From sequence record OL960580: a stretch of 64,000 bases of DNA; one strand, 5' to 3'. Positions within the stretch are counted from its first letter, which is position 1. Every line of letters starts with the position of its first letter. Made by a program: the position numbers and the translations under genes. The stretch is from Escherichia phage vB_EcoM_SA21RB. The notes under the pieces were generated by a model. It was not told the origin of the DNA. It made no database searches and saw only the letters and a list, made by a program, of their open reading frames with translations. Shown one piece after another: positions 22,501 to 40,737 of this stretch.

Positions 22501-23465
22501 TGTATTCTTTAGAGGAATTTAATAATCAAGCAATAAACGCAGATTTCCAGCGTAATAATATGTTTAGCTGCGTTTTTGCGACAACTCCATCAACTAAAAG
22601 CTCTTCGTTGATAAGTTCAATTAGCAACTTTTCTTATAATAACTTGGGCCTAAATTCAGATTGGTTAGGATTGACTCAAGGCGATATTAATCAGGGAATT
22701 ACCACGCTAATTACTGCTGGCACACAAAAACTGATAAGAAAATCAGGGGTTAGTAAATATCTTATTGGTGCCATGAGTCAACGTACAGTTCAAAGTTTAT
22801 TGGGCTCATTTACAGTTGGTACATATTTAATTGACTTCTTTAATATGGCATATAACTCATCTGGGTTGATGATATACTCTGTAAAAATGCCAGAGAATAG
22901 ATTATCCTATGAAACTGACTGGAACTATAACTCTCCTAATATTCGTATAACTGGGAGAGAATTAGACCCTTTGGTTATTTCATTTAGAATGGATTCAGAA
23001 GCTTGTAACTATCGTGCAATGCAAGACTGGGTTAACGCTGTTCAAGACCCAGTAACTGGACTGCGTGCTTTGCCACAAGATGTCGAGGCAGATATTCAGG
23101 TTAATCTTCATTCTCGTAATGGATTGCCTCATACTGCGGTGATGTTCACCGGATGCATTCCAATATCAGTGAGCGCTCCTGAGTTATCATATGATGGAGA
23201 TAACCAAATAACTACATTTGATGTTACTTTTGCGTACAGAGTGATGCAGGCTGGAGCGGTTGATAGGCAAGCTGCGCTTGAATGGCTTGAATCTGCTGCT
23301 ATAAATGGTATTCAAAGCGTTCTCGGAAATAGTGGAGGTGTTACTGGACTATCTAATTCGCTTTCACGACTTAGTAGATTAGGAGGGACTGCTGGAAGCA
23401 TTTCAAACATTAATACTATGACAGGAATTGTTAATTCGCAGAGTAAAATATTAGGAGCAATATAA
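22500..23465 (+). CDS. 54: Baseplate tail tube initiator gp54
   Basis: 321-aa ORF following gene 48. Confidence 0.9.
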   Translation: MYSLEEFNNQAINADFQRNNMFSCVFATTPSTKSSSLISSISNFSYNNLGLNSDWLGLTQGDINQGITTLITAGTQKLIRKSGVSKYLIGAMSQRTVQSLLGSFTVGTYLIDFFNMAYNSSGLMIYSVKMPENRLSYETDWNYNSPNIRITGRELDPLVISFRMDSEACNYRAMQDWVNAVQDPVTGLRALPQDVEADIQVNLHSRNGLPHTAVMFTGCIPISVSAPELSYDGDNQITTFDVTFAYRVMQAGAVDRQAALEWLESAAINGIQSVLGNSGGVTGLSNSLSRLSRLGGTAGSISNINTMTGIVNSQSKILGAI

Positions 23466-23469
23466 CAAT

Positions 23470-23495
23470 GGGGACCTTTCGGTCCCCATATTTTT
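23470..23495. terminator. Bidirectional terminator between gene 54 (+) and the minus-strand alt region
   Basis: GGGGACC-UUUC-GGUCCCC hairpin followed by a U-rich tract. Confidence 0.75.
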
Positions 23496-23784
23496 ATTTA
23501 CGGAATGAAATGAAAGCAGAAACTGAAGCAACTAAACTGTCTTCAATATAAACTTCAATTTTTACCGGAGCTTCTGACTCGAATTTACCTGTTACTACAC
23601 CTTGGAAAATACTTTCAGTTTGTTCTGGCTTTGAAAAATTTTCAGAAGGAAAAATTCCGAACTTTTTATCTGTTCCAAAAATTTTGATAAATTCATCATA
23701 AACTGCTTCATTAAAAGCATTATCAGCAGGAATAACGCCTTCAACTACAAGTTCTTGACCTAAAAAGCGCAAAGAAGATTTCAT
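23494..23784 (-). CDS. Hypothetical protein (T4 alt.-x position)
   Basis: 96-aa ATG ORF with SD AAGGA, downstream of an early promoter. Confidence 0.7.
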   Translation of the reverse strand: MKSSLRFLGQELVVEGVIPADNAFNEAVYDEFIKIFGTDKKFGIFPSENFSKPEQTESIFQGVVTGKFESEAPVKIEVYIEDSLVASVSAFISFRK

Positions 23785-23796
23785 TTTGTGTTCCTT

Positions 23797-23845
23797 ATGT
23801 TATATCAGTAAGATTACTATAACACAACACGAGGGACTTGTAAAC
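23797..23845. repeat. 49-bp promoter-leader repeat, copy A (48/49 identical to 39071-39119)
   Basis: Direct comparison of the two sequences. Confidence 0.9.
23816..23845 (-). promoter_or_regulatory. T4-type early promoter (GTTTAC -35, 18-nt spacer, TATAGT -10)
   Basis: Reverse complement of the plus-strand sequence; sits upstream of the 96-aa ORF. Confidence 0.65.
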
Positions 23846-25902
23846 TACATTTTGAACTTTTTAGACATTCCGTTAATGTTAACCAAAGAAGCTAAGATTT
23901 GAGAAACTTCGTTTTCCTCTTCTTTTGATTCTTCTACAAGGAATTGATTAAATCCAGCCATTGGACGAACTTCACCAGTTTCCATTAAATGGTCGCCATC
24001 ATATACTGATTCTTCTAATTGTTCAGAAGGAGGAACGATTGTACCTTCGATTAGATACTTATTATAAGCAGTTTCTTTCATAAAGTACGTACTTACTTTA
24101 TTAATCTTCAGTAAAATTCCACGCGGTAGAATAACTTCAGCTTCTGATGGAAATCCTGATAAATGACCTGGAACGATAACTTTGATTCGCTCAGCTCCTT
24201 TAATTACCATACCCACGCTAGTTTCAGCATCTTCATTAGCATATGTAGAATGACTACCCATATGCATCAAATCTTCTGCATCAACGGAACCTTCTCCTTC
24301 ACCAGAAAATACTGCGCCGGAATCATCTAGAGCCATATAGTTTTTACCATGCTCACCGAAGATATTTGGTTTAAGCGATGTGGATACGAAGTTCTTGAAA
24401 TAGAACATTTTATTTTCAATGTTATGACGCAAAGTTTTAAAGGTAACTTCTTGCCCACGATAAAGAGTAGTTCCTGGAGGAAGAACTGAACCTTTAGCAA
24501 ATGCAGAATCCAACGTCTCGATGTGTTTAATAGCTCGTTCCATATATTCTTCACGAGTAGAATCTGGTTTACCCAAGAGGAACGAGTTCATTTCAACATA
24601 TGAATCTGCACAATAATCTTCAATTACATCAGACTCAGCCTGAGTCAGTCCTTTTGGAGTTACTTCGGTGCTTGCGTATTCATATGCCTGAGCAGCAGAT
24701 TCATTAATCAATTTATAAATGCCATTCATGACAAATTGAATAATAGCTGTCTTTTCATCTGACGTAGCTTTAGAACCTTTAACTAAATCATTGATAATTT
24801 TCTTAATAACATCAAAGCTATTAGAAATATTAATATCAGCAAGATCGCTTAAAATTTTATCAGTTTTATAATCAAAGAATTCTTTATTCTTTAAATATTC
24901 TTGAGAACCTTGATATGTTATATCGCTCTGCAACTTGATGGATGGATCACGTAAACGTGCATGGGCTAATGCAATATGATTTCGGAAGTTTTCTAGTTCA
25001 TAATCGCTAGATTTAAAACGAGAAGCACTTCTCATACCACCGATAGCTCCTTTGCTGAAGTTTGAACCAATCTGAATAACGCCAGAGTTCATTGGTCCTT
25101 CTGCTTTATATACCGGAACTTTAGATTCAAACTCTTGATATTTCTTGGCAGCGAAGCTATCACCCTGAAGCGAAGCATCTACAGTAGAATATTGAGCTTG
25201 CGCTGCTAATCGACGACTAATTTTAGTTTTCTGAATAACAGCTTGATCCGTGCGCTTATCATTTTCTAAAGCAATAGAAGCAGCAACAGCAACAGCTTTA
25301 GGAACAGCATTACCTGTTTTAACATCTACATAAACATCACCAACCTTTGATTCAACTTTTGTGAATAACTCAGTTGAAATAGGAGGTACACCTGGAATGT
25401 CTTCTAAATTGGCATTTTTACGGTAAACCATAATATATGCATACTTTTTATCATAATCCCAGATTTCCTTTAAAAGAACATATCGACCTGCTCCTTTAGT
25501 ACGTACTAAACGGTCAGCAATAACTTGCATTTGACGAGCTGCGCCATTTGTTTTACTTTTTAGTACGCGGAATAGGCATGCGTCAATTTTATACTGTTTC
25601 ATTGTTTGAAGAGCAGTATCAAAAACCGCATTAATAACACCAATTGGATTTCCACCCAAGTTTTTAAGTTTAACTAATGATAGTTTCTCATTAACACCTA
25701 TCATTACGATATGCATCATTTTATCGCCTGGCTTAACGTTTTTATTTGTATCACCGCCAGAGGTGTATGTACAAAATCTAAATCCAGGAAGCACGCTTTC
25801 TTCGCCGGCTTGAATAGCAAAAATTTGAGGTATTTTATGCTTAGGATTTAAGTTAACAACCGGCGCCGAAGCGCCGTCAAATAATTCTGTAATAAGTTCC
25901 AT
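23845..25902 (-). CDS. Alt-like ADP-ribosyltransferase paralog (685 aa)
   Basis: N-terminus MELITELFD shared with the neighbouring paralog; ART motifs YRGQ, STS and EAEVILPRG. Confidence 0.85.
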   Translation of the reverse strand: MELITELFDGASAPVVNLNPKHKIPQIFAIQAGEESVLPGFRFCTYTSGGDTNKNVKPGDKMMHIVMIGVNEKLSLVKLKNLGGNPIGVINAVFDTALQTMKQYKIDACLFRVLKSKTNGAARQMQVIADRLVRTKGAGRYVLLKEIWDYDKKYAYIMVYRKNANLEDIPGVPPISTELFTKVESKVGDVYVDVKTGNAVPKAVAVAASIALENDKRTDQAVIQKTKISRRLAAQAQYSTVDASLQGDSFAAKKYQEFESKVPVYKAEGPMNSGVIQIGSNFSKGAIGGMRSASRFKSSDYELENFRNHIALAHARLRDPSIKLQSDITYQGSQEYLKNKEFFDYKTDKILSDLADINISNSFDVIKKIINDLVKGSKATSDEKTAIIQFVMNGIYKLINESAAQAYEYASTEVTPKGLTQAESDVIEDYCADSYVEMNSFLLGKPDSTREEYMERAIKHIETLDSAFAKGSVLPPGTTLYRGQEVTFKTLRHNIENKMFYFKNFVSTSLKPNIFGEHGKNYMALDDSGAVFSGEGEGSVDAEDLMHMGSHSTYANEDAETSVGMVIKGAERIKVIVPGHLSGFPSEAEVILPRGILLKINKVSTYFMKETAYNKYLIEGTIVPPSEQLEESVYDGDHLMETGEVRPMAGFNQFLVEESKEEENEVSQILASLVNINGMSKKFKM

Positions 25903-25905
25903 GAT

Positions 25906-28002
25906 TTATCCTTGAACGAACTTGTAAGGCATGTTTGTAATATCTATGCAAGACGCAATAATTCCAAGAGATGATTCTACTTTTTGTTTAACATTTGATG
26001 AAACAAATGATGCAAAGTCAACTCTGTCTTCTATTTCAATATCACCTGTCATTGCAACTACTTCACCAGTTTCCATTAGACGGTCACCGTCATAAATTAC
26101 TGATTCGGTGAGTTCTTCCGTAGTCATAACTTCAGCTTGAATGAGTTTTGTATTATTAGATGTTGTTCCGTCATTATTAGAAGCATCAGTTATTTTATTA
26201 ACTTTGACCATCAATCCGCGTGGTAGAATAACTTCAGCTTCTGTTGCTATTCCGAGACTTCCTGGATATACAACATTAACTTTATGTGCGCCGTCAATTG
26301 CCCATCCTATTTGAACTTTAACGTATTCAGGATTTTCTTTATACGCTCTTATTTCGTTTGGATTAATAGTTATTCCTTCTTCATTTTTATCAACTGTCAA
26401 TTCATTACGAGCTTCTGGTTCTAAAAGACCAATACCAGCATGTGTAATTCCAAAACGTCCAAAAATGATAGGAGTTAAAGAAGTAGATACAAAATTTCTG
26501 AAATAGAACACTTTATTTTTAACTAGTGCTTCGTATATAGGAGCAGTCATACTTTGTGCACGATAAACTGTAATGCCTTCCGGTATACGGTCACCATTTT
26601 CAAAAGCTGAATCTAAGTTATTTATAGCAGATTCAATTTCTTTTTCACTCATTACATCATATCGTTCTGGATTGTAGCGTCCTAAAAGAAGATTATTGAT
26701 GTCAGTATATCCTGAACCACAATACTCTCTAATGCCGCGCTTTTGTGATGGAGTATATTTAGAACCATCACGGGCAATAGTAATATCAATCATTGGACCT
26801 GCACCAATTCCAGAAAAGCTATAAATCATTCGTTTGAGGAATTTAGTTTTTGCTGCGTTCCAGGAATTTTTAGTTATTTCTTCCCAGACTTCATCTGGCT
26901 GTCCTTTACGGGTTTTATTATGTTTATCAAGCCAAGTATCTTTATATTCTTCAAAGAATTTATTAATAGCTGCTGCATACTTCTCTAAACATTTTATTGA
27001 AGTAGTTGGTTCATTTTTGATCGCGTTAAAAATTACATCTTTAATTTTTTCAGAAACTTCATTAACCTCACTTTTTGAAAAGAATTTATAATCATAGTGA
27101 AGTTCATCTGCAGTTCCTTCAGCAATAATTTTTGCTGCCTTAGTTTTAGAAGCCAATGAATTAATTCCAAGTTTCATTTCTTCTGCTTCAGGAATTAAAG
27201 GAGCGGTAGCAGGTTTATTGAAATTAGCTGCGGTAGATTCATACTTCTGGAATAATTCACTTTCAAATCTAGAAGATTCCAATGACTGACTTTGTGCAAT
27301 TGCTCTACGGGAAATTTTAACTTTAACGATTACAGCTTGGTCAGAACGTTTATCATTTTCTTGCGCAATAGATGCAGCAATTGCCTCATTTTTAGTTACT
27401 TGAGCTCCAGTATCTTTATTGATATAAACATCACCGACCTTCGATTCAACTTTAGTAAAGAGCTCGGTGCTAATTTCCGGAATTCCTGGAATGTCTTCTA
27501 GTGATACATTTTTGCGATGTATAAGAATATATGCATACTTTTTATCGTAATCCCAGAGTTCCTTAAGAAGGACGTATCTGCCACCCGAACGACTACGGAT
27601 AAGTCTATCAGCAATAACTTGAATTTGTCGAGCTTGACCAGCAGTTTTAGACTTAAGAATACGGAGCATACAGGCATCAATTTTATACTGACGCATCGTC
27701 TGCATTGCAACAGTAAAAACTGAATTGATGTAATTAATTGGGCTTGGACCGAGACCTTTCAATTTAGCAATTGAACCTTTAGCAGTTAATGTAAAAGGAA
27801 CAATATGCATCATTTTATCGCCCATTTTTAAATCGCGATTAGTATCACCTCCAGATGTATAGGTACATAAACGAAAGCCTGGTTGTTCAATTGCGTCATC
27901 AACATGAACTGAAAAAATTTGCGGTATTTTCTTCTTTGGATTTAAGTTTGTAATCGGAAGAGTAGTATCTTCGTCAAATAATTCTGTAATAAGTTCCATC
28001 AT
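25906..28002 (-). CDS. alt: Alt ADP-ribosyltransferase (698 aa), packaged capsid effector
   Basis: R-S-E ART motifs (VYRAQ, FVSTSL, EAEVILPRG); adjacent to the gene 30 side as T4 alt. Confidence 0.85.
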   Translation of the reverse strand: MMELITELFDEDTTLPITNLNPKKKIPQIFSVHVDDAIEQPGFRLCTYTSGGDTNRDLKMGDKMMHIVPFTLTAKGSIAKLKGLGPSPINYINSVFTVAMQTMRQYKIDACMLRILKSKTAGQARQIQVIADRLIRSRSGGRYVLLKELWDYDKKYAYILIHRKNVSLEDIPGIPEISTELFTKVESKVGDVYINKDTGAQVTKNEAIAASIAQENDKRSDQAVIVKVKISRRAIAQSQSLESSRFESELFQKYESTAANFNKPATAPLIPEAEEMKLGINSLASKTKAAKIIAEGTADELHYDYKFFSKSEVNEVSEKIKDVIFNAIKNEPTTSIKCLEKYAAAINKFFEEYKDTWLDKHNKTRKGQPDEVWEEITKNSWNAAKTKFLKRMIYSFSGIGAGPMIDITIARDGSKYTPSQKRGIREYCGSGYTDINNLLLGRYNPERYDVMSEKEIESAINNLDSAFENGDRIPEGITVYRAQSMTAPIYEALVKNKVFYFRNFVSTSLTPIIFGRFGITHAGIGLLEPEARNELTVDKNEEGITINPNEIRAYKENPEYVKVQIGWAIDGAHKVNVVYPGSLGIATEAEVILPRGLMVKVNKITDASNNDGTTSNNTKLIQAEVMTTEELTESVIYDGDRLMETGEVVAMTGDIEIEDRVDFASFVSSNVKQKVESSLGIIASCIDITNMPYKFVQG

Positions 28003-28022
28003 AGCCTCTCTAGTGTTTATTC

Positions 28023-28030
28023 TATTTATA
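28023..28030 (-). promoter_or_regulatory. Late promoter box TATAAATA (minus strand) upstream of alt
   Basis: Reverse complement of plus TATTTATA about 20 nt upstream of the alt ATG; SD GAGAGG follows. Confidence 0.55.
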
Positions 28031-28036
28031 AAATTA

Positions 28037-28054
28037 AAGGCCCGAAGGCCTTTA
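28037..28054 (-). terminator. Stem-loop AAAGGCC-CGAA-GGCCUUU between the 62-aa ORF and alt
   Basis: 7-bp stem with 4-nt loop, AT-rich flank. Confidence 0.55.
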
Positions 28055-28240
28055 GTAATCTAGTGGTAAGAGAGTACGATATATTTCAAACTTTGGTCCT
28101 TTTTCATAGGCATCAAATGTTTCTGTAAATTTATTATAAGCATATGCATCTACAAATTCGAGAATGACTTGTGATACAGAAGTAGAAACATCTCCACCTT
28201 CTTTTTGAGCAATGACAATTGTTTCTAAGTAAGCTTTCAT
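28052..28240 (-). CDS. Hypothetical protein, 62 aa, between gene 30 and alt
   Basis: ATG ORF with ATGA overlap onto the gene 30 stop. Confidence 0.6.
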   Translation of the reverse strand: MKAYLETIVIAQKEGGDVSTSVSQVILEFVDAYAYNKFTETFDAYEKGPKFEIYRTLLPLDY

Positions 28241-29700
28241 AGACCAGTTACCTCATGAAAATCACCAAATACATCCTCGAATGTATTAGCTTTAGTTTTA
28301 TCTTCGCGTAAACGAATCGCAATCGGAAGAAATAATTTAACGTAATCAGTGCGGCCATCAGATTTTAACCAACCATTGCATTCGCACTCTAGAATTTTTC
28401 CAATATAATAATTTTGGTTTTCCATAATGCGAGTACGGTCAAGTTCATGTGATTTTACACCGGCTTTATCTTTTAAGCCTGAACCAGCATTTACTTTAAT
28501 TTTTCCACATTCTGATTCAAGAATAAATCCACCGGCTTTAGTAGGGTCTTTACGGTGAGGATAAATTCCTACAATTTTTAAATCAACATCAATTACTTCT
28601 TTAAATTTATAGAGATTTTTTGAACGAGCATTTTCCCACAATCCATCGGTATTTTTGAGAATAATACCTTCAAGACCTTGGTCAATATATTTTTTATAAA
28701 TTACCTTAGCTTCATCTAGGTTATTTACTACCTGGTTTTCAATTAAAATTACTTTATCATATCCTGATGTCATTTGTTCTAGTTTAGAAAAACGTACATC
28801 ATATTTTAAACGAAACGCCGGAAGACCGTATATTTCTACCAACGGGACATAATCCCAGACCTGAAACTTCATACATTGAGCTTCTTTTTCAGAAATGGTT
28901 CCTTTTAAGGATTTATTGGCGATTCCATTAGAAGTAGTACGAGATTCCGCTACTTCGGCGAATTCTTTAGCTTTACTAATTTCAGGATAAGCATCAAAAA
29001 GAAAATCTAGGCCTTCTGGTTCCTTTTTAACTTGCTCATGGTATACCAATTCGCCATCAATTAACACACCTTCTGGATGAATCTGGCGGGCTTCAGCAGT
29101 CATTTTGATTAACTCTTCCTTAAGAAGATCTAATCCTAGATATTCATTACCAGCTCGTGATAAAAGACGAACATCATCTAATTCATCGCCTCGGACTTCA
29201 GCAAAACACCGAGCTCCATCTGCTTTTAACTGCGCAAAGGCTGGAAACTTGATATTCTTACTAATGCCTTTTTCATCATAAGAACTTGCCAGCATTTGAG
29301 GTTGTTCAGGAATTAAACCTGGCCAAACTTTATTTGCAATAGATACTGAAGCACCGCATTCAAGGTCTCGCATCATAACTCGACGCAAAACTTCAACATC
29401 ATCCTTTTTACCATCGGTGATATATCCAATTAATTCCTCAATTGCCGCATTTCCAGTCAATTTCCGAGTAGCTAACGTGAATTCAATGAAGTCAAGCATA
29501 TCGGTAATAGTCAGCATTCCAAAACTCTGGGTAGCAATACCAGGTTTAGGCCATTTCTTGATATAATACTGTAACCCACGAGAATAAGTTAGACGATATA
29601 CTCGTTTAAGCAATTCATTATCTTTATTCTTTTCAAGAATTGCTTGCTTCTGCTTAGTTGATCCAATAGATGCTATTTCATTCAGAATTTTAAGAATCAT
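28237..29700 (-). CDS. 30: ATP-dependent DNA ligase gp30
   Basis: 487-aa ORF with ligase adenylation motif KADGAR; length of T4 gp30. Confidence 0.93.
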   Translation of the reverse strand: MILKILNEIASIGSTKQKQAILEKNKDNELLKRVYRLTYSRGLQYYIKKWPKPGIATQSFGMLTITDMLDFIEFTLATRKLTGNAAIEELIGYITDGKKDDVEVLRRVMMRDLECGASVSIANKVWPGLIPEQPQMLASSYDEKGISKNIKFPAFAQLKADGARCFAEVRGDELDDVRLLSRAGNEYLGLDLLKEELIKMTAEARQIHPEGVLIDGELVYHEQVKKEPEGLDFLFDAYPEISKAKEFAEVAESRTTSNGIANKSLKGTISEKEAQCMKFQVWDYVPLVEIYGLPAFRLKYDVRFSKLEQMTSGYDKVILIENQVVNNLDEAKVIYKKYIDQGLEGIILKNTDGLWENARSKNLYKFKEVIDVDLKIVGIYPHRKDPTKAGGFILESECGKIKVNAGSGLKDKAGVKSHELDRTRIMENQNYYIGKILECECNGWLKSDGRTDYVKLFLPIAIRLREDKTKANTFEDVFGDFHEVTGL

Positions 29701-29966
29701 TGTTCATCCTTCAGAGTTTGATTTACAGCTCTATTATAAATCAATTCATCATTAAGCTCAGTCAAAGACTTATGATATGTAGTTCTAACTTTATTTCCTT
29801 GCATCCAGTGCTTGATATAAATGAAACCTTGCTCTACGCATTTTTTAAAAATTCGTTCGTCTTTTTGAGCTCGGAATTCTGGATTGCATCTAAAAAATTG
29901 ATTTACGTGACCGTAATCACGCGTAGTATTACCTTCATTTTCATAAATAGTGTGAACGACAAACAT
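29697..29966 (-). CDS. 30.1: Hypothetical protein (30.1 position)
   Basis: 89-aa ORF overlapping neighbours by 4 nt. Confidence 0.65.
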   Translation of the reverse strand: MFVVHTIYENEGNTTRDYGHVNQFFRCNPEFRAQKDERIFKKCVEQGFIYIKHWMQGNKVRTTYHKSLTELNDELIYNRAVNQTLKDEQ

Positions 29967-30805
29967 TAGAATGCTCCTTGGAAAATATTATCACCACAAG
30001 TAGGTCTATTATACAAATACTCTATTCCACCAGGTTTAATATAGTTCCATGTCTGAAACGGATGTGTCTGATATGGATGATATAGATGATTATAAGGATT
30101 AACTCCAGGTGTTCTCCAGGTAGTGTTCCAACGAAAAGAATCATTTTTAATCATCTTTTCAATTATATTTTTTATAGCTTTTTCGCTATCAAAACTTTCT
30201 TTATTTTCCTTTGGTGAAAAAAGCTTATTTTCTACATCATTCCATGTATAAACTCGCTGCGCAGTTTTTGGAATATTGTCACGCTCTCCTCGAGCCATCC
30301 AATAAACTGGAACATTTAATATTTCACTCGCGTGGTCGCAGTGGTGAGCGAGATCGTCAATATAACAAATTACGTTATATTTCTCTTTTGCCTTTTTGAA
30401 TAACTCTTCTTTTGAAGAATCATGACCACACATCATTACTTCTGAGAAGGCACCAGGAAAAAGAGCATTCAAATTAAATTGACGATTCAGCAGAGCGTCA
30501 ATAGAATCACCCAATGCTGTAACAGCTACAAAATTATAATCTTCTTTTAATTTGTTAATTACACACAGGGCATCTTTATATGGAGACAAGTAACGAATAA
30601 AATCTGAACGATTGTATTTTTCAATTAACTTGACGCCAAGTTCTTCATCACAATTAAAGAGTTTACCTGGAGAAATAAATTTCTCATCTTGGATCATTTT
30701 TAAAATATGTTCTAATGGAAGATTATATTTCTGGGCAAAATAAGGAAGGCCTGATTGCCAGCTTAAACATACACCATCAATATCAGTCAAAATAGTTGGC
30801 TTCAT
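29966..30805 (-). CDS. 30.2: HAD-like phosphatase-fold hypothetical protein (30.2 position)
   Basis: 279-aa ORF with N-terminal DIDGV (DxDG[TV], HAD motif I). Confidence 0.7.
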   Translation of the reverse strand: MKPTILTDIDGVCLSWQSGLPYFAQKYNLPLEHILKMIQDEKFISPGKLFNCDEELGVKLIEKYNRSDFIRYLSPYKDALCVINKLKEDYNFVAVTALGDSIDALLNRQFNLNALFPGAFSEVMMCGHDSSKEELFKKAKEKYNVICYIDDLAHHCDHASEILNVPVYWMARGERDNIPKTAQRVYTWNDVENKLFSPKENKESFDSEKAIKNIIEKMIKNDSFRWNTTWRTPGVNPYNHLYHPYQTHPFQTWNYIKPGGIEYLYNRPTCGDNIFQGAF

Positions 30806-31260
30806 AGAGAGTCTCTTAATAGGTTTAACACATCAATAAATTCAGCTTCGGTTAGTATTGTATCATCTTTTGTTAGACCACTAGCCATGCTGTGCTTCAA
30901 AACTTTTCCTTTCGAGGCTTGTAATGCATCGCGAAAGCCCTTATTTTGGATCGCTGCTTCAAAATATGCATTTGTGTATAATTCTTTCCACGCCGGGGAG
31001 TATCTTGAAAACGGAACTCCAAGCCAAAAGAGGGTCCCACGGTCCTGAGCTCTAGCATAAGACCTTCCAGCTTGTTGGGCGGCAAGCCCGGATAACCCAA
31101 ATATACGTCTTTGCTGTTCAACATTTTTCACCTTACACCCTTGGAGAAATCCTTCGAGACCTCCAAATTGGATACCATCCATAACAAAAGGCCATTGGGC
31201 GAAATTACTTAATGCACATGATGGCCATCTAAAATTGCTTCTAATCTCTAATTCAGACAT
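30802..31260 (-). CDS. 30.3: Hypothetical protein (30.3 position)
   Basis: 152-aa ORF. Confidence 0.65.
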   Translation of the reverse strand: MSELEIRSNFRWPSCALSNFAQWPFVMDGIQFGGLEGFLQGCKVKNVEQQRRIFGLSGLAAQQAGRSYARAQDRGTLFWLGVPFSRYSPAWKELYTNAYFEAAIQNKGFRDALQASKGKVLKHSMASGLTKDDTILTEAEFIDVLNLLRDSL

Positions 31261-31468
31261 CTTTAATACTTATAATTTCAATATCAGCCCAATGACCATA
31301 ACTTGGTAAACGGTCTTCAATAGATAATCCGCCATCATATTTAAGCATTTTAATTGTCATAATATATGGCTCTAAATGGTCTTCAGTGAGCGGAGAGACA
31401 TCAGTCACACGATAAGTAACTTCAACCATTTCCGTGCCCAGTAATTTCTGGATTAATTTCTTAAACAT
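31253..31468 (-). CDS. Hypothetical protein (30.x)
   Basis: 71-aa ORF. Confidence 0.55.
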   Translation of the reverse strand: MFKKLIQKLLGTEMVEVTYRVTDVSPLTEDHLEPYIMTIKMLKYDGGLSIEDRLPSYGHWADIEIISIKDV

Positions 31469-31472
31469 TTTA

Positions 31473-31760
31473 TTAAAATCTCATCTGAAAACCGTGTGAT
31501 TTAACATTACCGCCGCCGATATCAGAAATGTTAATTTCGCGCGCGATTGAAGGGTCAATGTCAATTTCACGATTGAGTTTAGTGATAGCTAAAGTATCGC
31601 GGCCATTTACAGTACGGAACTCTAAAGGGCAGACTACATTAACATAGTTTTTAATCGATTCACTGGTAGGCTGCAAATGAGCAGGAAGGTCTTTAGGTGC
31701 CTTTGAGAAAACCACTTCACAGAAATTTTTGCGGGTATCAAAATAAGTAGTCATAAACAT
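31473..31760 (-). CDS. Hypothetical protein (30.x)
   Basis: 95-aa ORF with SD GAGGA. Confidence 0.6.
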   Translation of the reverse strand: MFMTTYFDTRKNFCEVVFSKAPKDLPAHLQPTSESIKNYVNVVCPLEFRTVNGRDTLAITKLNREIDIDPSIAREINISDIGGGNVKSHGFQMRF

Positions 31761-31777
31761 AGTATTTTCCTCAGTAA

Positions 31778-31791
31778 GGGGCCAAAGCCCC
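31778..31791. terminator. Intergenic stem-loop GGGGC-CAAA-GCCCC
   Basis: 5-bp GC stem; plus-strand U-run follows. Confidence 0.4.
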
Positions 31792-31801
31792 TCATTTTAT
31801 T

Positions 31802-32167
31802 TTAAATATCAAATTCGTTAAGAACTACATCAAAGATCGCTTCAAGATGCTCAGGTTTAGCTCGGTTGCTCAGGATGTGACGAATCCAAGTTTTAACCAG
31901 AAGCTTACGATTAACGCCATTCCAGCAAGGATGAGTCCCCAAATCGCGTTGACGAAAATCATCATCTAATGCGATTTTAAAAGAAGAACCTTCTTTCGTG
32001 ATTGAAACCGTGATGCCATTTTCAAATCGCATATAAACGTAGTTAGGAGTCATATACTGTTCAATTTCGCATACTGATCCATTTTGATGTTTCCAAAGGC
32101 AGATAGTATCAATAGAACCTGCAATACCGTTAGAAACATATTTACGTTCAAAGTTGATGTAGTTCAT
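31802..32167 (-). CDS. Hypothetical protein (30.x)
   Basis: 121-aa ORF downstream of an early promoter. Confidence 0.65.
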   Translation of the reverse strand: MNYINFERKYVSNGIAGSIDTICLWKHQNGSVCEIEQYMTPNYVYMRFENGITVSITKEGSSFKIALDDDFRQRDLGTHPCWNGVNRKLLVKTWIRHILSNRAKPEHLEAIFDVVLNEFDI

Positions 32168-32204
32168 TTTTATTCTCCGAGATGTTTAATTGCGGTACAG
32201 GTAT

Positions 32205-32233
32205 ATAATATCATATCCTGTACCAAAGTAAAC
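32205..32233 (-). promoter_or_regulatory. T4-type early promoter (GTTTAC, 17-nt spacer, TATTAT) flanked by an 8-bp inverted repeat
   Basis: Reverse complement read directly; inverted repeat GGTACAGG / CCTGTACC at 32194-32201 and 32217-32224. Confidence 0.65.
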
Positions 32234-32235
32234 AA

Positions 32236-32568
32236 TTATTTTACTACTTTCCAGTGCTGCATGTCAAGTTTACCAACTTTTTTCATCTTCTCAATTAAGC
32301 GTTCGGCACGTTGGCGAGCTGTAACATAATACCATTCACCCAATTCATTTTGTTCAATTTTTCCAACGATTACTGTATTCAATTCATAAATCCAACCAGT
32401 AAAGAAATTATGAACTTGAATTGTAAAGGTGAAATCTGTTCCCATACCTTCTGTTGTTTCTACTTCAATAATATCACCTTCAACTGCCATTAAGAACCAC
32501 ATAGTTTCATCATATTTACCATTGAAGCATTTAGTTTTAACTGTGGCGTTCAGATTAATCGTTTTCAT
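32236..32568 (-). CDS. Hypothetical protein (30.x)
   Basis: 110-aa ORF. Confidence 0.65.
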   Translation of the reverse strand: MKTINLNATVKTKCFNGKYDETMWFLMAVEGDIIEVETTEGMGTDFTFTIQVHNFFTGWIYELNTVIVGKIEQNELGEWYYVTARQRAERLIEKMKKVGKLDMQHWKVVK

Positions 32569-32595
32569 TTTATTCTCCTTTGTTTGTGTAAGATA

Positions 32596-32625
32596 ATACT
32601 ATCACAAAGGAACCATACTGTAAAC
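32596..32625 (-). promoter_or_regulatory. T4-type early promoter (GTTTAC, 18-nt spacer, TAGTAT)
   Basis: Reverse complement read directly. Confidence 0.6.
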
Positions 32626-32642
32626 AACTTTGTGCAATCTTT

Positions 32643-32674
32643 GGAAAATAAAAAAGGACTCCCGAAGGAGTCCT
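32643..32674 (-). terminator. Rho-independent terminator after 30.9
   Basis: AGGACUCC-UUCG-GGAGUCCU hairpin followed by a U-run on the minus strand. Confidence 0.75.
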
Positions 32675-32678
32675 CAAC

Positions 32679-32855
32679 TTATGCTTTCTGCTTACCAAAA
32701 CGAGAAGCATCATCTCGAAGAACCGCACGTGCTCGACGCATGATCTTCTCAACAGTTTGATTGATACGAGAGTTCGACCCACGCTTGTAGCCAGCGCGTT
32801 TAGAATCACCAACTTTCTTTTCAACTGCTTTCTTTGCTTTAACTTGTTTTGCCAT
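32679..32855 (-). CDS. 30.9: Small basic protein (30.9 position)
   Basis: 58 aa from ATG 32855 (MAKQVKAKK); an upstream ATG at 32897 would give 72 aa. Confidence 0.6.
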   Translation of the reverse strand: MAKQVKAKKAVEKKVGDSKRAGYKRGSNSRINQTVEKIMRRARAVLRDDASRFGKQKA

Positions 32856-33251
32856 TATAAATTCTCTTTTAAATGAAAATGCAGGACTTATTGGCATTGC
32901 CTGCGCAAGCCCTCAAGGGGAACATAGGTTTTGGATATTTAACGACAGGATAACCATAAACCCGTCATCATACCTTATAGCTCTTATCTGTTGCACACCG
33001 TTAGCTTAAAGGTTCCGGGTCCGATTTCTCGAGGATAAGATATATACTGATGGATATATAGGCCTTGAGGCGTACTCCCGATTGGCCATCACCTCGGGGT
33101 AGCATGCACTTGCCGCTATAAGAATAACATTCAAGAGGTACACCGTAAAACTGCCGGGGTCTTAAAACTATAATGATTCGCAAATCATTAATCAGACAGT
33201 TCGACGGCTCCTCGTTTTAACTTCACACTAAGGCAGTGACTCTCCAATAAA

Positions 33252-33500
33252 TTATTTCAGTGTTACCACAAAGTGACGAACTGCTTTTCGTGCAGCAGAA
33301 GCCAGAGGCTTAGCATACTTAAGTTCATCTTTTTCCTGAAGCTCAGCAGCTAATGCAGTTTGAGCAGGATTCAGATGTTTGAAATAACGCAGGATTTCAA
33401 GAGCTTCGGCTTCAACATCAATAGATGCGCCATAGTTTTCGTGACCATTATTCCATGCGTTTCGTTGCAGTTCAAGAGCGTGTTGTAATTGTTTAATCAT
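33252..33500 (-). CDS. rIII: RIII, lysis-inhibition accessory protein (cytoplasmic antiholin)
   Basis: 82-aa ORF immediately downstream of gene 31, matching T4 rIII length and position. Confidence 0.7.
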   Translation of the reverse strand: MIKQLQHALELQRNAWNNGHENYGASIDVEAEALEILRYFKHLNPAQTALAAELQEKDELKYAKPLASAARKAVRHFVVTLK

Positions 33501-33639
33501 TTAAAAATTCTCGTTAGAGATTAAAACTCGGTAGTCACGTTCTTCTGAATTTCATCTTCTTTCGACAGATCTCTCAGTTGTAGACTACCACGTAGAATTG
33601 TTCGGTTAACTTATTATTCCGACACCCAATTCATATTAT

Positions 33640-33647
33640 TATTTATA
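33640..33647 (-). promoter_or_regulatory. Late promoter box TATAAATA (minus strand) between gene 31 and rIII
   Basis: Reverse complement of plus TATTTATA; about 140 nt upstream of rIII. Confidence 0.4.
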
Positions 33648-33983
33648 TCACTTATAAAGACACGGAATAGCTTTATAGTGACAGGTAACGAATTTTTGTT
33701 TAATTTCTTTTGGCTGCTTAAGACCCAGAGCTACAAAAGGATGCGGAACGTTTCGAATTTGACCAACTGGAAGAGAAGTCAAATCACCAACTTCGCAGAA
33801 ACCTTCAGGAACATCAGGACCAACAGAGTGAATTACACACAGTTCAGGAACTTCACCTTGGACACGTTTACCGATAATAAGTCCTGATTCTGTAACTTCT
33901 TCATCACCGGCTTGTGCAGGTTCAGAAACTAAAATAACATATTCACCGACAGCACGAATTGGTAGCTGTTGTACTTCAGACAT
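33648..33983 (-). CDS. 31: Gp31 co-chaperonin (GroES-like)
   Basis: 111-aa ORF, N-terminus [16 protein letters not shown]; length of T4 gp31. Confidence 0.92.
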
Positions 33984-34039
33984 CGTTTTTCCTTTTTGTT
34001 AACAGATGAGTTAATAATAACAAATAATTCTTAAAGCAT

Positions 34040-34348
34040 TTATTTACCAATAAATTGAAGCAAATGCTCAACTTTCATACCATTAACGGAAATCAATTTG
34101 TCAATAGAAAAACCTCGCCATGCACCAAGCTCAACATCAAATACTGGAATCATATCAATAGATTCTTTCCGAGTAGATTCAGTCAATTTACCGGTTTGCA
34201 TAGTTGGCATAAAGTCAGCATCACGAGTGCCTTTCATAGTACGAATAGTACCATCAGACTTTTCAAAAACCACGTTTGAAATACCCATGGACAATTTAGT
34301 TTTCAAAATTTCACGAATTGCTTGCTTCTGCTTAGTTGTCAGTTTCAT
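34040..34348 (-). CDS. 31.1: Hypothetical protein (31.1 position)
   Basis: 102-aa ORF. Confidence 0.65.
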   Translation of the reverse strand: MKLTTKQKQAIREILKTKLSMGISNVVFEKSDGTIRTMKGTRDADFMPTMQTGKLTESTRKESIDMIPVFDVELGAWRGFSIDKLISVNGMKVEHLLQFIGK

Positions 34349-34585
34349 TTATTTACCTATTACAGTTTTAATATGGGTTGTTCCACGTTCTTTAAGAGTG
34401 GAAAGCAATTTTTGGCATTTTTCTAAATCAGATTTCCAACTATATGGTCTATCAATACAAACCCATTCTGACTTATAATACTGCTTCCATTTAGAGAAAA
34501 AATATTTCTTATACTCTACAGCAAATGAAATGTTCTCATTAGAATAAGAACTAATTGCTGTGAGTTGTACCAAACGAAATTTCAT
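34349..34585 (-). CDS. 31.2: Hypothetical protein (31.2 position)
   Basis: 78-aa ORF. Confidence 0.6.
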   Translation of the reverse strand: MKFRLVQLTAISSYSNENISFAVEYKKYFFSKWKQYYKSEWVCIDRPYSWKSDLEKCQKLLSTLKERGTTHIKTVIGK

Positions 34586-35166
34586 TATTCACCACAGAAT
34601 TCGTTGATATTTTCCCAATTTAACTTATTCAAGTTTTTCTTAGGAACATTAAACACTTCAATACCTGCATTTCGCAGAATATCATCCCAGCCAGGTTTAT
34701 TCTTATCGTATGTTTCGCAATAAACCAGCTTTTTAATTCCAGATTGAGCTATCGCTTTTGCACAATCTGGGCAAGGAGAAAGTGTTACATACATAGTAGC
34801 ACCTTCAATTGAAGAACCGTTTCGCGCAGCAAACAAAATTGCATTTAGCTCAGCATGAATTTCATTTTTAGACGACCATTCAGAGTGAGCACTACGGTGT
34901 TCTTTCGCTAAGACAAAACGATCAGTTGAACCAAACGATACACATTCGGGCTTATGACCTTGAATGATAGTATGTTTAGGTTTATTCAGCAACCAACCTT
35001 GCTCAGCAGCATAATCACAACAGTTCACACCACCTGCCGGAGAACCATTATATCCGGTAGAAATAATACGTCCATTCTTTTCAATTACTGCTCCTACCTT
35101 CCAGGAGCAACATTTGGATTCTTGTGATACTAAATATGCAATTTGAAGTACTGTACTCGCTTTCAT
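34585..35166 (-). CDS. cd: dCMP deaminase
   Basis: 193-aa ORF with zinc-binding deaminase motifs HAE and PCxxC. Confidence 0.9.
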   Translation of the reverse strand: MKASTVLQIAYLVSQESKCCSWKVGAVIEKNGRIISTGYNGSPAGGVNCCDYAAEQGWLLNKPKHTIIQGHKPECVSFGSTDRFVLAKEHRSAHSEWSSKNEIHAELNAILFAARNGSSIEGATMYVTLSPCPDCAKAIAQSGIKKLVYCETYDKNKPGWDDILRNAGIEVFNVPKKNLNKLNWENINEFCGE

Positions 35167-35501
35167 TTCATAATCACCAGATAAGCAGATTTAGCAGTTT
35201 CAACACGATAAATTTCATGACGAAGTTTAGTTATACTTTTAATAACAGAACTAATTATATTCTGCCCATCTTTAAAGCGGTTTTTCTTATCAATGAAAAT
35301 TGCACCAGCCATCTTTTTGTGAAGCTCAACTGGATACTTCGTCACAATAATAGCATCATACACAGAAGGATGAATACTATTCACTAGAGTATCGTTCATT
35401 AAAGTTATTCTAATGAACTGTGCTGTTTCAGAATCAAGCGCTCTATGATCGCCAGTATCATTTTCAAGACAATTATCAATTATATCAGTTAAATTCATCA
35501 T
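35163..35501 (-). CDS. cd.1: Hypothetical protein (cd.1)
   Basis: 112-aa ORF. Confidence 0.6.
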   Translation of the reverse strand: MMNLTDIIDNCLENDTGDHRALDSETAQFIRITLMNDTLVNSIHPSVYDAIIVTKYPVELHKKMAGAIFIDKKNRFKDGQNIISSVIKSITKLRHEIYRVETAKSAYLVIMK

Positions 35502-35734
35502 AGTACGCCATACACCCTTTGTGCTTCAACTAATCCATCAAAATCCAATTTGAGATGTGTTATTTGGTCACCATCGCCTGGATTCACAATTACTAATACT
35601 GAACGAGGAGTTTCGGTAATAACACGAACCGATGTTTCAGGAAATCGTTCAGAAACCTTATTTACCAATTCCTGAGCAAATAGTTTAACTTTTTCTTGAA
35701 ATTCTTTAACAGTAATTGGTTTTTCACTTAGCAT
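35498..35734 (-). CDS. cd.2: Hypothetical protein (cd.2)
   Basis: 78-aa ORF downstream of an early promoter. Confidence 0.6.
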   Translation of the reverse strand: MLSEKPITVKEFQEKVKLFAQELVNKVSERFPETSVRVITETPRSVLVIVNPGDGDQITHLKLDFDGLVEAQRVYGVL

Positions 35735-35764
35735 TTCAATTTCCTCATTTATTTTGGTAGAGCT

Positions 35765-35794
35765 ATAATATCACAACTCTACCGTAAAGTAAAC
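35765..35794 (-). promoter_or_regulatory. T4-type early promoter (GTTTAC, 18-nt spacer, TATTAT)
   Basis: Reverse complement read directly. Confidence 0.65.
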
Positions 35795-35796
35795 TA

Positions 35797-36072
35797 TTAA
35801 ATTGCTTTGAATTCTGATGTCTGCGATTCAAAACGAATATCGCCTTTGATGACTAGCTCAGCATCAAGACCGAATACGACAATGATATGCGCAGAACCTG
35901 GATACAGCGTAATGGCGATAGAATCAACCTGGTCTGGAAGCAAAGTGTTCAATACATGAGTCACTTGAGCATGAATTCGAAGCTCAGCTGCGTTATCAAG
36001 CTTTTCAAACATATTATTAGCTATAATTTGGCTAAACACTACTTCTACGATTTTAGAATAAGTCGGAAACAT
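35797..36072 (-). CDS. cd.3: Hypothetical protein (cd.3)
   Basis: 91-aa ORF. Confidence 0.6.
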   Translation of the reverse strand: MFPTYSKIVEVVFSQIIANNMFEKLDNAAELRIHAQVTHVLNTLLPDQVDSIAITLYPGSAHIIVVFGLDAELVIKGDIRFESQTSEFKAI

Positions 36073-36074
36073 AT

Positions 36075-36267
36075 TTACCTCACATAATTTTCTTCAAGCC
36101 AATCAATAACATCTAAAGCATTATCAAAAATTGAGCCATCTACTTTGTCTTCTGTTTCATAATCAAGAACATCTAAGCCTACTCTTCCATCAACAATAGG
36201 CCATAAACAAAATAAATATTTCTTTTCTTTTTCAATCTTATCGCAAAGACGATAAATCTTTTCTAAG

Positions 36268-36275
<8 letters not shown>
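36075..36275 (-). CDS. cd.4: Hypothetical protein (cd.4)
   Basis: 66-aa ORF. Confidence 0.55.
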
Positions 36276-37690
<1,415 letters not shown>

Positions 37691-37693
37691 TTA

Positions 37694-37924
37694 TTATTTC
37701 TCAACCAATGATTGAATATAATCATGCAAGTCTTTAGATGCTTTACCCCACTTATTTTGGTATTCATTTTTAAGATTAGCACGTGATTGAGCTAATAAAA
37801 CATCATTAGTTGGAGGTAAAGATTCTAATCGTTGAATCTGGCGTCCATAAATCATTGCAGCCATCTCGGATTCATAAATCAATCCTTTGAGATGTTCAAA
37901 TTGATGCCATGAAATCATTTGCAT
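37694..37924 (-). CDS. Hypothetical protein
   Basis: 76-aa ORF. Confidence 0.55.
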   Translation of the reverse strand: MQMISWHQFEHLKGLIYESEMAAMIYGRQIQRLESLPPTNDVLLAQSRANLKNEYQNKWGKASKDLHDYIQSLVEK

Positions 37925-38214
37925 TTATCCTCTTTTAACTCTTGGCGATAATAACATATCATAGTTTTCTGATCATGTACATATCGTTTTACATCATTAA
38001 GCCAAATACGAAATTCCTGGGAATCTTCAAATGGCATACCGACCCAAGCTTTACCATCGATAACTTTAACTTGCCAAGATAGTTTAGCTTCATCATATAA
38101 CTTTATCTGCACAGGCCAATTAGGATGAACTGTTTCTTTCTTTACTTCTAGAGGCTTTGTCGAACAACCAACTAGAAGACCAATAGATAATATTACTGCT
38201 GATAGTTTAATCAT
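37915..38214 (-). CDS. pseT.2: Outer-membrane spanin (lipoprotein)
   Basis: 99-aa ORF with signal peptide and lipobox LVGC followed by S; overlaps the i-spanin gene. Confidence 0.75.
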   Translation of the reverse strand: MIKLSAVILSIGLLVGCSTKPLEVKKETVHPNWPVQIKLYDEAKLSWQVKVIDGKAWVGMPFEDSQEFRIWLNDVKRYVHDQKTMICYYRQELKEDKCK

Positions 38215-38564
38215 TTAGAAAGGTCCTGGATGTCTTCTGCGAACTTATTAAAGGAGTTGTTGATTTGTTTTTCAACCAATCCTGGCTTATGAGCCACCAC
38301 ATCCGCCTTCTTTGCGTCTTTGCGCAGTTTTTCATTTTCACGCTCAATAGCAGCAATTGCCTCACGATTTTTATTATTCATCGCATCAATATAATTATAT
38401 TGAATTTTTAAATCATTTAATGCTAAAGCGTTTTCATTGGCCGTTTTTGTAATTTCTACAACAGACGTTTCTAATCTTTCAATTTTACTTTTTAAAATTA
38501 AAGAAGTTCCGCCCAATGCAATTACAATTAATAACAAACCTGCTGTCGTATTACTTAATTGCAT
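38211..38564 (-). CDS. pseT.3: Inner-membrane spanin
   Basis: 117-aa ORF with N-terminal transmembrane segment followed by coiled-coil-like sequence. Confidence 0.75.
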   Translation of the reverse strand: MQLSNTTAGLLLIVIALGGTSLILKSKIERLETSVVEITKTANENALALNDLKIQYNYIDAMNNKNREAIAAIERENEKLRKDAKKADVVAHKPGLVEKQINNSFNKFAEDIQDLSK

Positions 38565-39061: not shown

Positions 39062-39070
39062 AAAGTCCTC

Positions 39071-39119
39071 ATGTTATGTCAGTAAGATTACTATAACACA
39101 ACACGAGGGACTTGTAAAC
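39071..39119. repeat. 49-bp promoter-leader repeat, copy B (48/49 identical to 23797-23845)
   Basis: Direct comparison. Confidence 0.9.
39090..39119 (-). promoter_or_regulatory. T4-type early promoter (GTTTAC, 18-nt spacer, TATAGT) upstream of alc
   Basis: Reverse complement read directly. Confidence 0.65.
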
Positions 39120-39122
39120 AGC

Positions 39123-40710
<1,588 letters not shown>

Positions 40711-40717
40711 AATAAAA

Positions 40718-40733: not shown

Positions 40734-40737
40734 CTCC

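Follow-up and report, generated by a model that had tools for sequence, protein, structure and literature searches.

A duplicated early-promoter cassette of T4-like phages with a predicted hairpin over the Shine-Dalgarno sequence

Why should two unrelated genes of a T4-like phage, 15 kb apart, be preceded by almost the same promoter and leader? The question arose from an initial annotation of a 64,000-nucleotide stretch of Escherichia phage vB_EcoM_SA21RB (OL960580), referred to below as the window, which is Tequatrovirus (T4-like) DNA and about 98% identical to many deposited genomes. That annotation described two 49-bp copies of a sequence, in the same orientation and matching at 48 of 49 positions, and offered either recent promoter transfer or a conserved RNA element as the reason. 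We examined the extent of the repeat, its predicted structure, its distribution and variation among related phages, and the functions that it might have.

Extent and genomic context of the cassette

A scan of the whole window with the degenerate 49-mer reproduced the match. The sequence was found at 23797-23845 and 39071-39119 only (plus strand, 48/49 identical), and 100 shuffles contained no chance matches to it (0 expected). When the window was compared with itself, the gap-free match grew to 54 nt (23792-23845 versus 39066-39119, 52/54 identical); no other non-coding repeat of the window is as long. Longer repeat families belong to the alt paralogues or to a region of coding repeats at 52.9 to 53.8 kb. 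On the minus strand, the elements follow each other in the order GTTTAC, spacer, TATAGT, leader, and Shine-Dalgarno sequence (SD), so that the repeat runs from the initial G of the -35 hexamer to the SD. Cassette positions are numbered from the G of GTTTAC, so that position p lies at window coordinate 23846 - p in copy 1 and 39120 - p in copy 2. The cassettes, their promoter elements, and the surrounding features are listed here.

23792-23845, minus strand: cassette copy 1, 54 nt at the alt.-3 junction, starting with the G of GTTTAC and ending with the SD
23840-23845, minus strand: -35 hexamer GTTTAC of copy 1, whose initial G doubles as the G of the TAG that ends the upstream alt paralogue
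23816-23821, minus strand: -10 hexamer TATAGT of copy 1; the TGT before it is extended -10-like, and the hexamer occupies the top of the hairpin 5' arm and part of the loop
39066-39119, minus strand: cassette copy 2, at the alc junction (54 nt)
39114-39119, minus strand: -35 hexamer GTTTAC of copy 2, 3 nt past the TAA stop codon of rnlA
39090-39095, minus strand: -10 hexamer TATAGT of copy 2
23494-23784, minus strand: alt.-3 (96 aa), the gene downstream of copy 1
23845-25902, minus strand: second alt paralogue (equivalent of T4 alt.-2), full length here, upstream of copy 1
38555-39061, minus strand: alc, inhibitor of host transcription, the gene downstream of copy 2
39123-40283, minus strand: rnlA (gene 63), upstream of copy 2; the listed start is GTG, and the start is likely an ATG near 40246
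28023-28030, minus strand: perfect late promoter TATAAATA, preceding the first alt paralogue
23468-23489, both strands: terminator-like bidirectional hairpin between alt.-3 and gene 54

Each copy is an early promoter with a leader, serving one of two unrelated genes, as had been described. Read on the minus strand, both consist of GTTTAC, an 18-nt spacer, TATAGT, a leader of ~20 nt, GAGGA or AAGGA, and ATG; the promoter can also be read as TTTACA-17-TATAGT with an upstream TG. In a consensus scan, both copies ranked among the best sigma-70-like sites in 23000-41500 (10/12). The SD of alc is GAGGA (39066-39070, minus strand), and that of the alt.-3 copy in this window is AAGGA. The gap between the upstream stop codon and the -35 hexamer is -1 nt in copy 1 and +3 nt in copy 2, and the flanks upstream are A-rich. 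No late promoter TATAAATA was found inside either cassette. The similarity goes beyond promoter consensus: none of the window's seven other canonical GTTTAC early promoters shares spacer or leader sequence with the pair, and the 49-mer was not found to be shared by all early promoters. Transcription is predicted to start near cassette position 37, in the loop of the hairpin described below and downstream of its 5' arm. The earlier suggestion of identical transcript 5' ends agrees with this model, which predicts identical 5' untranslated regions (UTRs) for both copies.

The gene downstream of copy 1 is the 96-aa open reading frame named in the initial annotation and corresponds to T4 alt.-3; the gene in front of it, given there as alt, had to be corrected to the second of two tandem alt paralogues (alt.-2). 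This second paralogue is full length in T2 and RB32 also, and T4 keeps remnants, alt.-1 and alt.-2. In T4, alt.-3 is non-essential and of unknown function, and the CmdTAC defense was escaped by T4 carrying C-terminal extensions of alt.-3 (PMC11618068).

The late promoter at 28030-28023, which is annotated at the same position in phage ASO78A, is the predicted source of late read-through RNA into copy 1. A scan found no terminator-like site between this promoter and copy 1, the first such site being the one at 23489-23468, past alt.-3. Just upstream of rnlA lies a middle-promoter-like sequence, GCTT-N15-TACTAT. In a T4 time course, alt was classed as late, rnlA as early-RNA/late-protein, and both alc and alt.-3 as early-RNA/early-protein (PMC9697503). 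Taken together, the late alt promoter, the lack of a terminator before copy 1, and the T4 expression classes make read-through into the cassettes plausible.

A predicted hairpin and its conservation at the alc junction

Cassette positions 12 to 26 (CCUCGUGUUGUGUUA), which cover the spacer and the start of the -10 hexamer, pair with positions 39 to 53 (UGACAUAACAUGAGG), which cover the leader and the SD. The arms lie in the window as follows.

23820-23834, minus strand: 5' arm of copy 1, CCTCGTGTTGTGTTA, positions 12 to 26, in the promoter spacer
23793-23807, minus strand: 3' arm of copy 1, TGATATAACATAAGG, positions 39 to 53, containing the SD
39094-39108, minus strand: 5' arm of copy 2
39067-39081, minus strand: 3' arm of copy 2, TGACATAACATGAGG, containing the SD GAGGA of alc

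The core helix has 15 contiguous pairs, 3 of them G·U, and the whole hairpin is predicted to span 15 to 22 bp. At alc, six outer pairs between AAGUCC (39108-39113) and GGACUU (39063-39068) lengthen the stem, and a small inner stem closes the loop. In every version of the cassette, the -10 hexamer occupies the stem top and part of the loop.

In read-through RNA, the alc copy of the window was predicted to fold with -27.3 kcal/mol (z of -4.03, with 0/200 shuffles as stable) and the alt.-3 copy with -15.7 kcal/mol (z of -1.94). The hairpin of the latter is weaker because G50 is replaced by A (AAGGA), which leaves a C·A mismatch; the common Tequatrovirus alt.-3 copy reached -23.0 kcal/mol (z of -4.6) and the T2-type alt.-3 variant -24.1 kcal/mol (z of -5.6). 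RNAs beginning in the loop were essentially unstructured (-1.8 and 0 kcal/mol). Since the predicted +1 falls downstream of the 5' arm, which is part of the spacer, the hairpin should form only in read-through transcripts. The idea of a conserved RNA element was thus borne out as far as the hairpin itself is concerned but not for the promoter's own transcript, outside of which the element falls because its 5' arm precedes the predicted start. Folds of the antisense strand gave -15.4 kcal/mol for alc (versus -27.3 kcal/mol for the sense strand) and -12.6 kcal/mol for alt.-3, the helix being specific to the sense strand because of its G·U pairs. A search of 23000-40500 against Rfam 15 returned no covariance-model match at either cassette at an E value of ≤1.

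Homologues of alc are present throughout the T4-like phages, and we compared the alc junctions of STP4-a (Gelderlandvirus), UFV01 (Karamvirus), pKp20 (Jiaodavirus), KIT01 (Dhakavirus), CIP9 (Kanagawavirus), and Clarke_MM3. In each of these six lineages outside Tequatrovirus, the rnlA stop codon is followed by GTTTAC and by a spacer complementary to the SD region of alc, with the -10 hexamer in or beside the loop. The stem sequences vary from lineage to lineage (for example, UCUCCAUUUGGUU/AACCAAAUGGAGA and AUCCUCAUCAG/CUGAUGAGGAU). Hairpin z scores in the six lineages ranged from -2.8 to -6.9, and the 3' arm is anchored on the SD in 7/7 lineages with the long hairpin.

An unanchored alignment of all lineages' junctions (MAFFT and RNAalifold) gave no consensus helix, the stems of different genera not being in the same register. 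We therefore rely on an alignment of the arms only, anchored on the SD and anti-SD, with 15 ungapped nucleotides per arm and a fixed linker in place of the loop. With a single anchor per sequence and ungapped arms, the remaining pairs serve as independent tests. In this alignment, the register of which was our own choice and leans toward the structure, 87.1% of cells were paired, compared to 71.9% in shuffles (0/500 shuffles reached the observed value), and 11/15 pairs showed changes on both sides, compared to 6.0 in shuffles (0/500). When the partner arm was slid by 1 to 3 columns, pairing fell to 34 to 52% and the number of pairs with both-sided changes to 2 to 4. The reverse complement of the alignment was 81.4% paired, and across the 12 core pairs there were 25/168 unpaired cells in the antisense versus 8/168 in the sense orientation. 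This asymmetry between strands favors a structure in the sense of the mRNA over a symmetric DNA cruciform.

The long hairpin at alc is absent from Mosigvirus (RB69 and ESCO47), where only a short spacer hairpin with a z score of about 0 was seen, as well as from Gaprivervirus TH40, an Acinetobacter phage, and an Aeromonas phage. Given its absence from several genera, the long alc hairpin is widespread but dispensable.

Distribution and variation of the two copies

A blastn search with the 54-mer found 997 places in 499 phage records, two per genome and all in the T4 group. T4 itself has both copies (53/54 alike), and T2, RB32, and the other genomes examined also have two; scans of IMG/VR and metagenomes gave few contigs. 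The pair occurs in essentially all Tequatrovirus genomes, which places the duplication in the ancestor of the genus or earlier. The notion of a recent promoter transfer is not supported, given the occurrence of the pair in 499 records, T4, T2, and RB32 included.

Homologues of alt.-3 exist in other genera, and in VR20, HY126, PhiKpNIH-6, CkP1, and RB69 an early promoter likewise stands right after the alt stop codon at the alt/alt.-3 junction. These five junctions have another type of cassette, with a short hairpin inside the spacer (loop AAGGAA or AUGGAU, for example) and a free SD; the long, SD-masking cassette was found at the alt.-3 junction in Tequatrovirus only. The difference in cassette type between Tequatrovirus and the other genera is consistent with a single cassette replacement and suggests displacement of the resident alt.-3 cassette by the alc cassette within the Tequatrovirus lineage. 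It is the junction architecture in other genera alone that gives the copying this direction, from alc to alt.-3; by sequence similarity, the alc junctions of other genera, their alt.-3 junctions, and unrelated early promoters score in overlapping ranges. The alt.-3 copies of T2, teqhal, and GBLB0003 carry TTCCTTATG in the 5' arm, which makes 15/15 pairs with the alt.-3-specific flank GGAAC. To judge by its sequence, this variant looks like local tuning that followed the copy. A parallel sharing of one cassette by alc and alt.-3 in Mosigvirus (RB69) was considered and rejected, the two sequences being ~70% alike and most of the likeness belonging to the consensus of the start region.

Variation was compared among copies from 17 genomes (20 alc and 21 alt.-3 copies). 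The two copies within a genome were identical at 49/54 to 54/54 positions, and among the 20 alc and 21 alt.-3 copies there were no fixed differences between the loci. Six polymorphic positions (15, 16, 27, 32, 40, and 42) were common to both loci, with a P value of 0.003 under a null of uniform sites that ignores unequal site tolerance. Divergence between paralogues was 0.042 over all pairs and 0.033 within genomes, and allelic diversity was 0.030 and 0.050 at the two loci. The same pi values set against 0.027 to 0.049 for flanking coding DNA indicate that conservation of the cassette is no higher. Loop position 32 was concordant between the copies in 13/17 genomes (Fisher P value of 0.03, uncorrected for kinship); a perfect concordance within genomes (9/9) was overturned by three metagenome-derived genomes and LF73P3. 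A genus-wide count of concordance at position 32 with allele-specific 30-mers in megablast was uninformative, because variable sites break the 28-nt seed. With common polymorphisms and no fixed differences, the two loci behave as one sequence pool, and the comparison of copies suggests that their likeness reflects occasional gene conversion between 54-bp repeats, in a phage that recombines readily, duplication shortly before the radiation of the genus, or both.

The commonest polymorphisms in Tequatrovirus, at positions 27 and 32, fall on unpaired bases. In one alt.-3 copy, the pair C15-G50 is replaced by U15-A50, and the alt.-3 copy of LF73P3 has two stem-breaking changes. Overall, the stem substitutions in Tequatrovirus comprised ~6 to 7 that preserve pairing versus 4 that disrupt it, an excess not clearly beyond chance for transitions. 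The case for the hairpin is made mainly by the comparison between genera.

Proposed function, alternatives, and relation to known systems

On balance, we lean toward reading the cassette as a translational insulator, in which an early promoter is embedded in an SD-masking hairpin. On this model, RNA reading through from upstream would hold both arms, fold, and hide the SD of alc or alt.-3, and it would be poorly translated at these genes. At copy 1, such RNA would consist of late transcripts from the alt promoter, and at copy 2 of middle or upstream early transcripts through rnlA. RNA from the cassette's own promoter would begin in the loop (about position 37) and lack the 5' arm, leaving the SD free. 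Translation of alc and alt.-3 would in this way be tied to the early promoter and insulated from upstream transcription. In or before the Tequatrovirus ancestor, the cassette of one junction would have taken the place of the promoter cassette at the other. What we infer in this scheme is where transcription starts, how translation is affected, and which way the cassette was copied. A more extended account, which we put forward tentatively, would have a conserved insulator at rnlA-alc in at least seven lineages, working by the inverse of the logic known from T4 gene e; the module would have been copied behind the late alt genes and its 5' arm tuned to the flank there, with conversion between the copies ongoing.

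Ribosomes that finish translation at the adjacent stop codon might melt the lowest part of the stem, and the result would then be coupling and not a block. In translational coupling, as between the coat and replicase genes of RNA coliphages, a downstream SD is masked by pairing near the preceding stop codon. The upstream ribosome opens the structure in classical coupling, and no internal promoter bypasses it. Unlike in coupling hairpins, the 5' arm of the cassette begins 7 to 14 nt past the stop codon, where a ribosome would reach only the stem base.

A hairpin that begins within ~10 nt of the upstream stop codon, as at both loci, would suit an action on the upstream RNA, either as a terminator or attenuator or as a 3'-end stabilizer of the alt and rnlA mRNAs, as has been proposed for the stem-loops of promoter early stem-loop (PeSL) cassettes, with the SD included incidentally. 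We regard this as unlikely, although several observations speak for it. Six of the nine canonical early promoters of the window (47409, 39119, 35794, 32625, 32233, and 23845) have a significant stem-loop across the -10 hexamer, with z scores of -2.8 to -4.2 for the four besides the cassette pair, and 5/6 of them start -1 to +3 nt from an upstream stop codon on the same strand. The three early promoters that lack a stem-loop either have no upstream open reading frame closer than 72 nt or lie in a divergent region. Because the stem-loop promoters abut upstream stop codons, the hairpins sit where read-through RNA is expected, which also speaks for the insulator model. The SD is buried in three of the six (alc, alt.-3, and 32625) and lies outside the hairpin in the other three, so that the hairpins may have a more general role. 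In addition, software predicted a "terminator" over the cassette in phage ASO78A, where the same stretch is annotated as an "early promoter," and the stem-loop of a PeSL element cut reporter expression like a strong terminator (PMC2839356). Against an action on the upstream RNA, the 3' arm falls on the SD in 7/7 lineages, which is hard to explain were the SD irrelevant. Moreover, although a stable hairpin just past a stop codon resembles a Rho-independent terminator, no U-run follows the stem (alt.-3, AACACAAAAUG; alc, CUUUAUGAUG), the stems are AU/GU rich and not GC rich, and the consensus scan flagged neither cassette while detecting true terminators nearby. An intrinsic terminator was rejected on these grounds. 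A role in the upstream RNA and masking of the SD can coexist.

Still less probable, in our judgment, is a strong promoter that was merely duplicated, with a hairpin that is not under selection and a repeat that serves as a substrate for homologous recombination in the manner of PeSL shuffling. Such an origin would fit the conservation of the cassette, which is no higher than that of flanking coding DNA, and it would fit paralogue divergence that equals allelic diversity, with six common polymorphic positions and no fixed differences. T4 recombination needs <50 bp of homology (cited in PMC2839356). Under this reading, however, the covariation across genera at the alc junction and the strongly negative z scores in seven lineages are unexpected. 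A crossover between the direct repeats would also delete ~15 kb with gene 30 (DNA ligase) and gene 31 in it; a rearrangement of this kind was seen in none of the genomes examined.

We consider it very improbable that the inverted repeat acts as DNA, whether as a cruciform or single-strand hairpin that aids promoter opening or as a site for an early shut-off factor: the -10 hexamer does lie at the stem top and loop in all versions, inverted repeats do cross it in 6/9 early promoters here, and shut-off of T4 early promoters is incompletely understood (PMC3014915), but the G·T(U) pairs allow only the sense strand to fold well while a cruciform needs both, the repeat sequences differ wholly from promoter to promoter outside the cassette pair, which argues against a sequence-specific operator, and the link with abutting upstream open reading frames points to read-through RNA.

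The insulator that we favor has relatives among known systems. The textbook examples are the T4 genes e, soc, 49, and I-TevI, whose translation initiation region is sequestered in long transcripts; an internal late promoter yields translatable RNA, and the early and middle transcripts are silent (reviewed by Uzan & Miller 2010, PMC3014915). As in those genes, the SD (there sometimes the AUG) would lie in a helix of long transcripts, here a predicted one, and RNA from the gene's own promoter, here from the predicted +1, would lack the 5' arm and be translatable. Unlike their late promoter TATAAATA, the promoter embedded in the cassette is of the early sigma-70 type, and the RNAs silenced would, on the model, be late (alt) or middle and upstream early (rnlA) ones. 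With an early promoter in this place, the cassette lacks the late promoter that defines the class, and its temporal logic is inverted. The text of the T4 review (PMC3014915) does not mention alc or alt.-3 in any connection.

PeSL elements of RB49 and phi1 provide a second comparison (Arbiol et al. 2010, PMC2839356). Their anatomy is an upstream stop codon, an early promoter, a stem-loop, an SD, and a start codon, with the stem-loop between the -35 and -10 elements or overlapping the -10; the cassettes are repeated within a genome and are potential recombination linkers. T-even analogues with AT-rich stems on T4 early promoters are credited there to Repoila et al. 1994. The cassette shares with PeSLs an early promoter right after the upstream stop codon, an A/T-rich upstream flank, and an end in SD and start codon, and its stem-loop is likewise tied to the promoter, extending here from spacer to leader with the -10 hexamer at the top and in the loop. 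It differs from the PeSLs of RB49 in its AU/GU-rich stems that lack a U-tract, the RB49 elements being GC-rich terminators of the form GGGG...CCCC. Sequestration of the SD goes unmentioned in the available part of the PeSL account. Unlike PeSLs, the two junctions are syntenic across genera and lie outside hyperplastic ORFan regions, and only these two share sequence.

In light of these comparisons, the cassette is real but belongs, as a fairly ordinary member, to a class of phage regulatory cassettes that is already known, and it reveals no new kind of system. Modest interest attaches to the embedded early promoter and to the copying of a whole module to a second locus. A full-text search of the literature with the cassette sequence found nothing, and the near-identity of the copies may have been noted before. 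If the insulator model is true, alc and alt.-3 join the short list of T4 genes under promoter-dependent RNA structure, and the device works in the opposite temporal direction, an early gene being kept silent on later or upstream transcripts. It would likewise give a functional reason for the stem-loops found at many T-even early promoters, so far treated mainly as recombination linkers or terminators, and it would mean that a complete regulatory module was copied between loci. Short mutations would then be defined for the control of Alc or Alt.-3 expression. For annotation, "terminator" calls that overlap T4 early promoters would then probably be these hairpins.

A third early promoter with a Shine-Dalgarno sequence predicted to be buried

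To the alc and alt.-3 cassettes, in which the early-promoter spacer is predicted to pair with the leader and Shine-Dalgarno (SD) sequence, the window adds a third of the same design, whose sequence is unrelated to theirs.

32560-32628, minus strand: early-promoter cassette, with the -35 element at 32625-32620
32675-32654: intrinsic terminator between the upstream open reading frame (ORF) and this cassette

In the predicted fold (-15.2 kcal/mol, z of -2.8), spacer sequence UUCCUUUGUG pairs with CACAAACAAAGGAG, and the stem would bury the SD of a 110-amino-acid ORF resembling T4 30.8 (32236..32568). A distance of 53 nt from the preceding ORF sets this cassette apart from those of alc and alt.-3. 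Rfam gives one match here that stays below threshold, to the Rhizobiales sRNA Atu_C8 (32640-32723, minus strand; 31.4 bits versus a gathering score of 50; E value of 0.006). It overlaps the hairpin of the terminator that precedes the promoter; chance similarity to a terminator-like stem is the most likely explanation.

Stem-loops at other early promoters

Three further minus-strand early promoters, with -35 positions at 47409, 35794, and 32233, have significant stem-loops (z of -3.2, -3.8, and -4.2, respectively) that are centered on the -10 element and leave the SD outside; each of these promoters starts within -1 to +2 nt of an upstream stop codon. Among the window's canonical early promoters, those at 62842, 51438, and 48137 showed neither a stem-loop across the -10 element nor an abutting upstream ORF.

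In other genera, a short hairpin lies within the promoter spacer at alt/alt.-3 junctions (loci L022-L025 and L027) and at Mosigvirus alc junctions (L018 and L028). Its loop is SD-like in every case (AAGGAA, AUGGAU, AAGGAC, AUGGAA, or AAGGAU); the motif is kept across five lineages, although the folding energy itself is not significant (z of about 0). In read-through RNA the loop could offer ribosomes a standby or decoy site; alternatively, it could be bound by a protein.

Sequence variation and a candidate late promoter at the duplicated cassettes

The alt.-3 SD of copy 1 (23792-23796) reads AAGGA in vB_EcoM_SA21RB rather than the usual GAGGA, and both the SD and the hairpin are weaker as a result. 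In the related phage GBLB0003, alt.-3 carries the same AAGGA change together with C15 to U, which restores pairing.

The alc cassette is preceded, about 20 nt upstream, by a late-promoter-like site.

39135-39160, minus strand, in the 3′-terminal part of rnlA: TATAAAAA, which differs at one position from the late promoter TATAAATA

In phage ASO78A, the equivalent site was annotated as a possible late promoter. If this candidate is active, its transcripts would carry both arms of the alc hairpin.

Other repeats and the alt paralogues

Further repeated sequences were found in the window.

29631-29660 and 34309-34338: direct repeat of 30 nt with 97% identity
23845-25902 and about 25906-28000: alt paralogues in tandem, both of full length

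The 30-nt copies lie near the N-terminal coding ends of the gene 30 DNA ligase (ORF 28237..29700) and of a 102-amino-acid 31.1-like ORF (34040..34348); their similarity exceeds chance. A family of imperfect direct repeats of 33 to 68 nt (D2 and D6; 66 to 85% identical, spaced 108 to 680 nt apart) at 52885-53810 is unconnected with the duplicated promoter-hairpin cassette. Patches of ~70 to 80% identity link the two alt paralogues (repeat families D1, D7, D8, D13, D14, and D18); the second survives only as fragments in T4 (alt.-1/alt.-2), and both are kept in T2, RB32, and most relatives.
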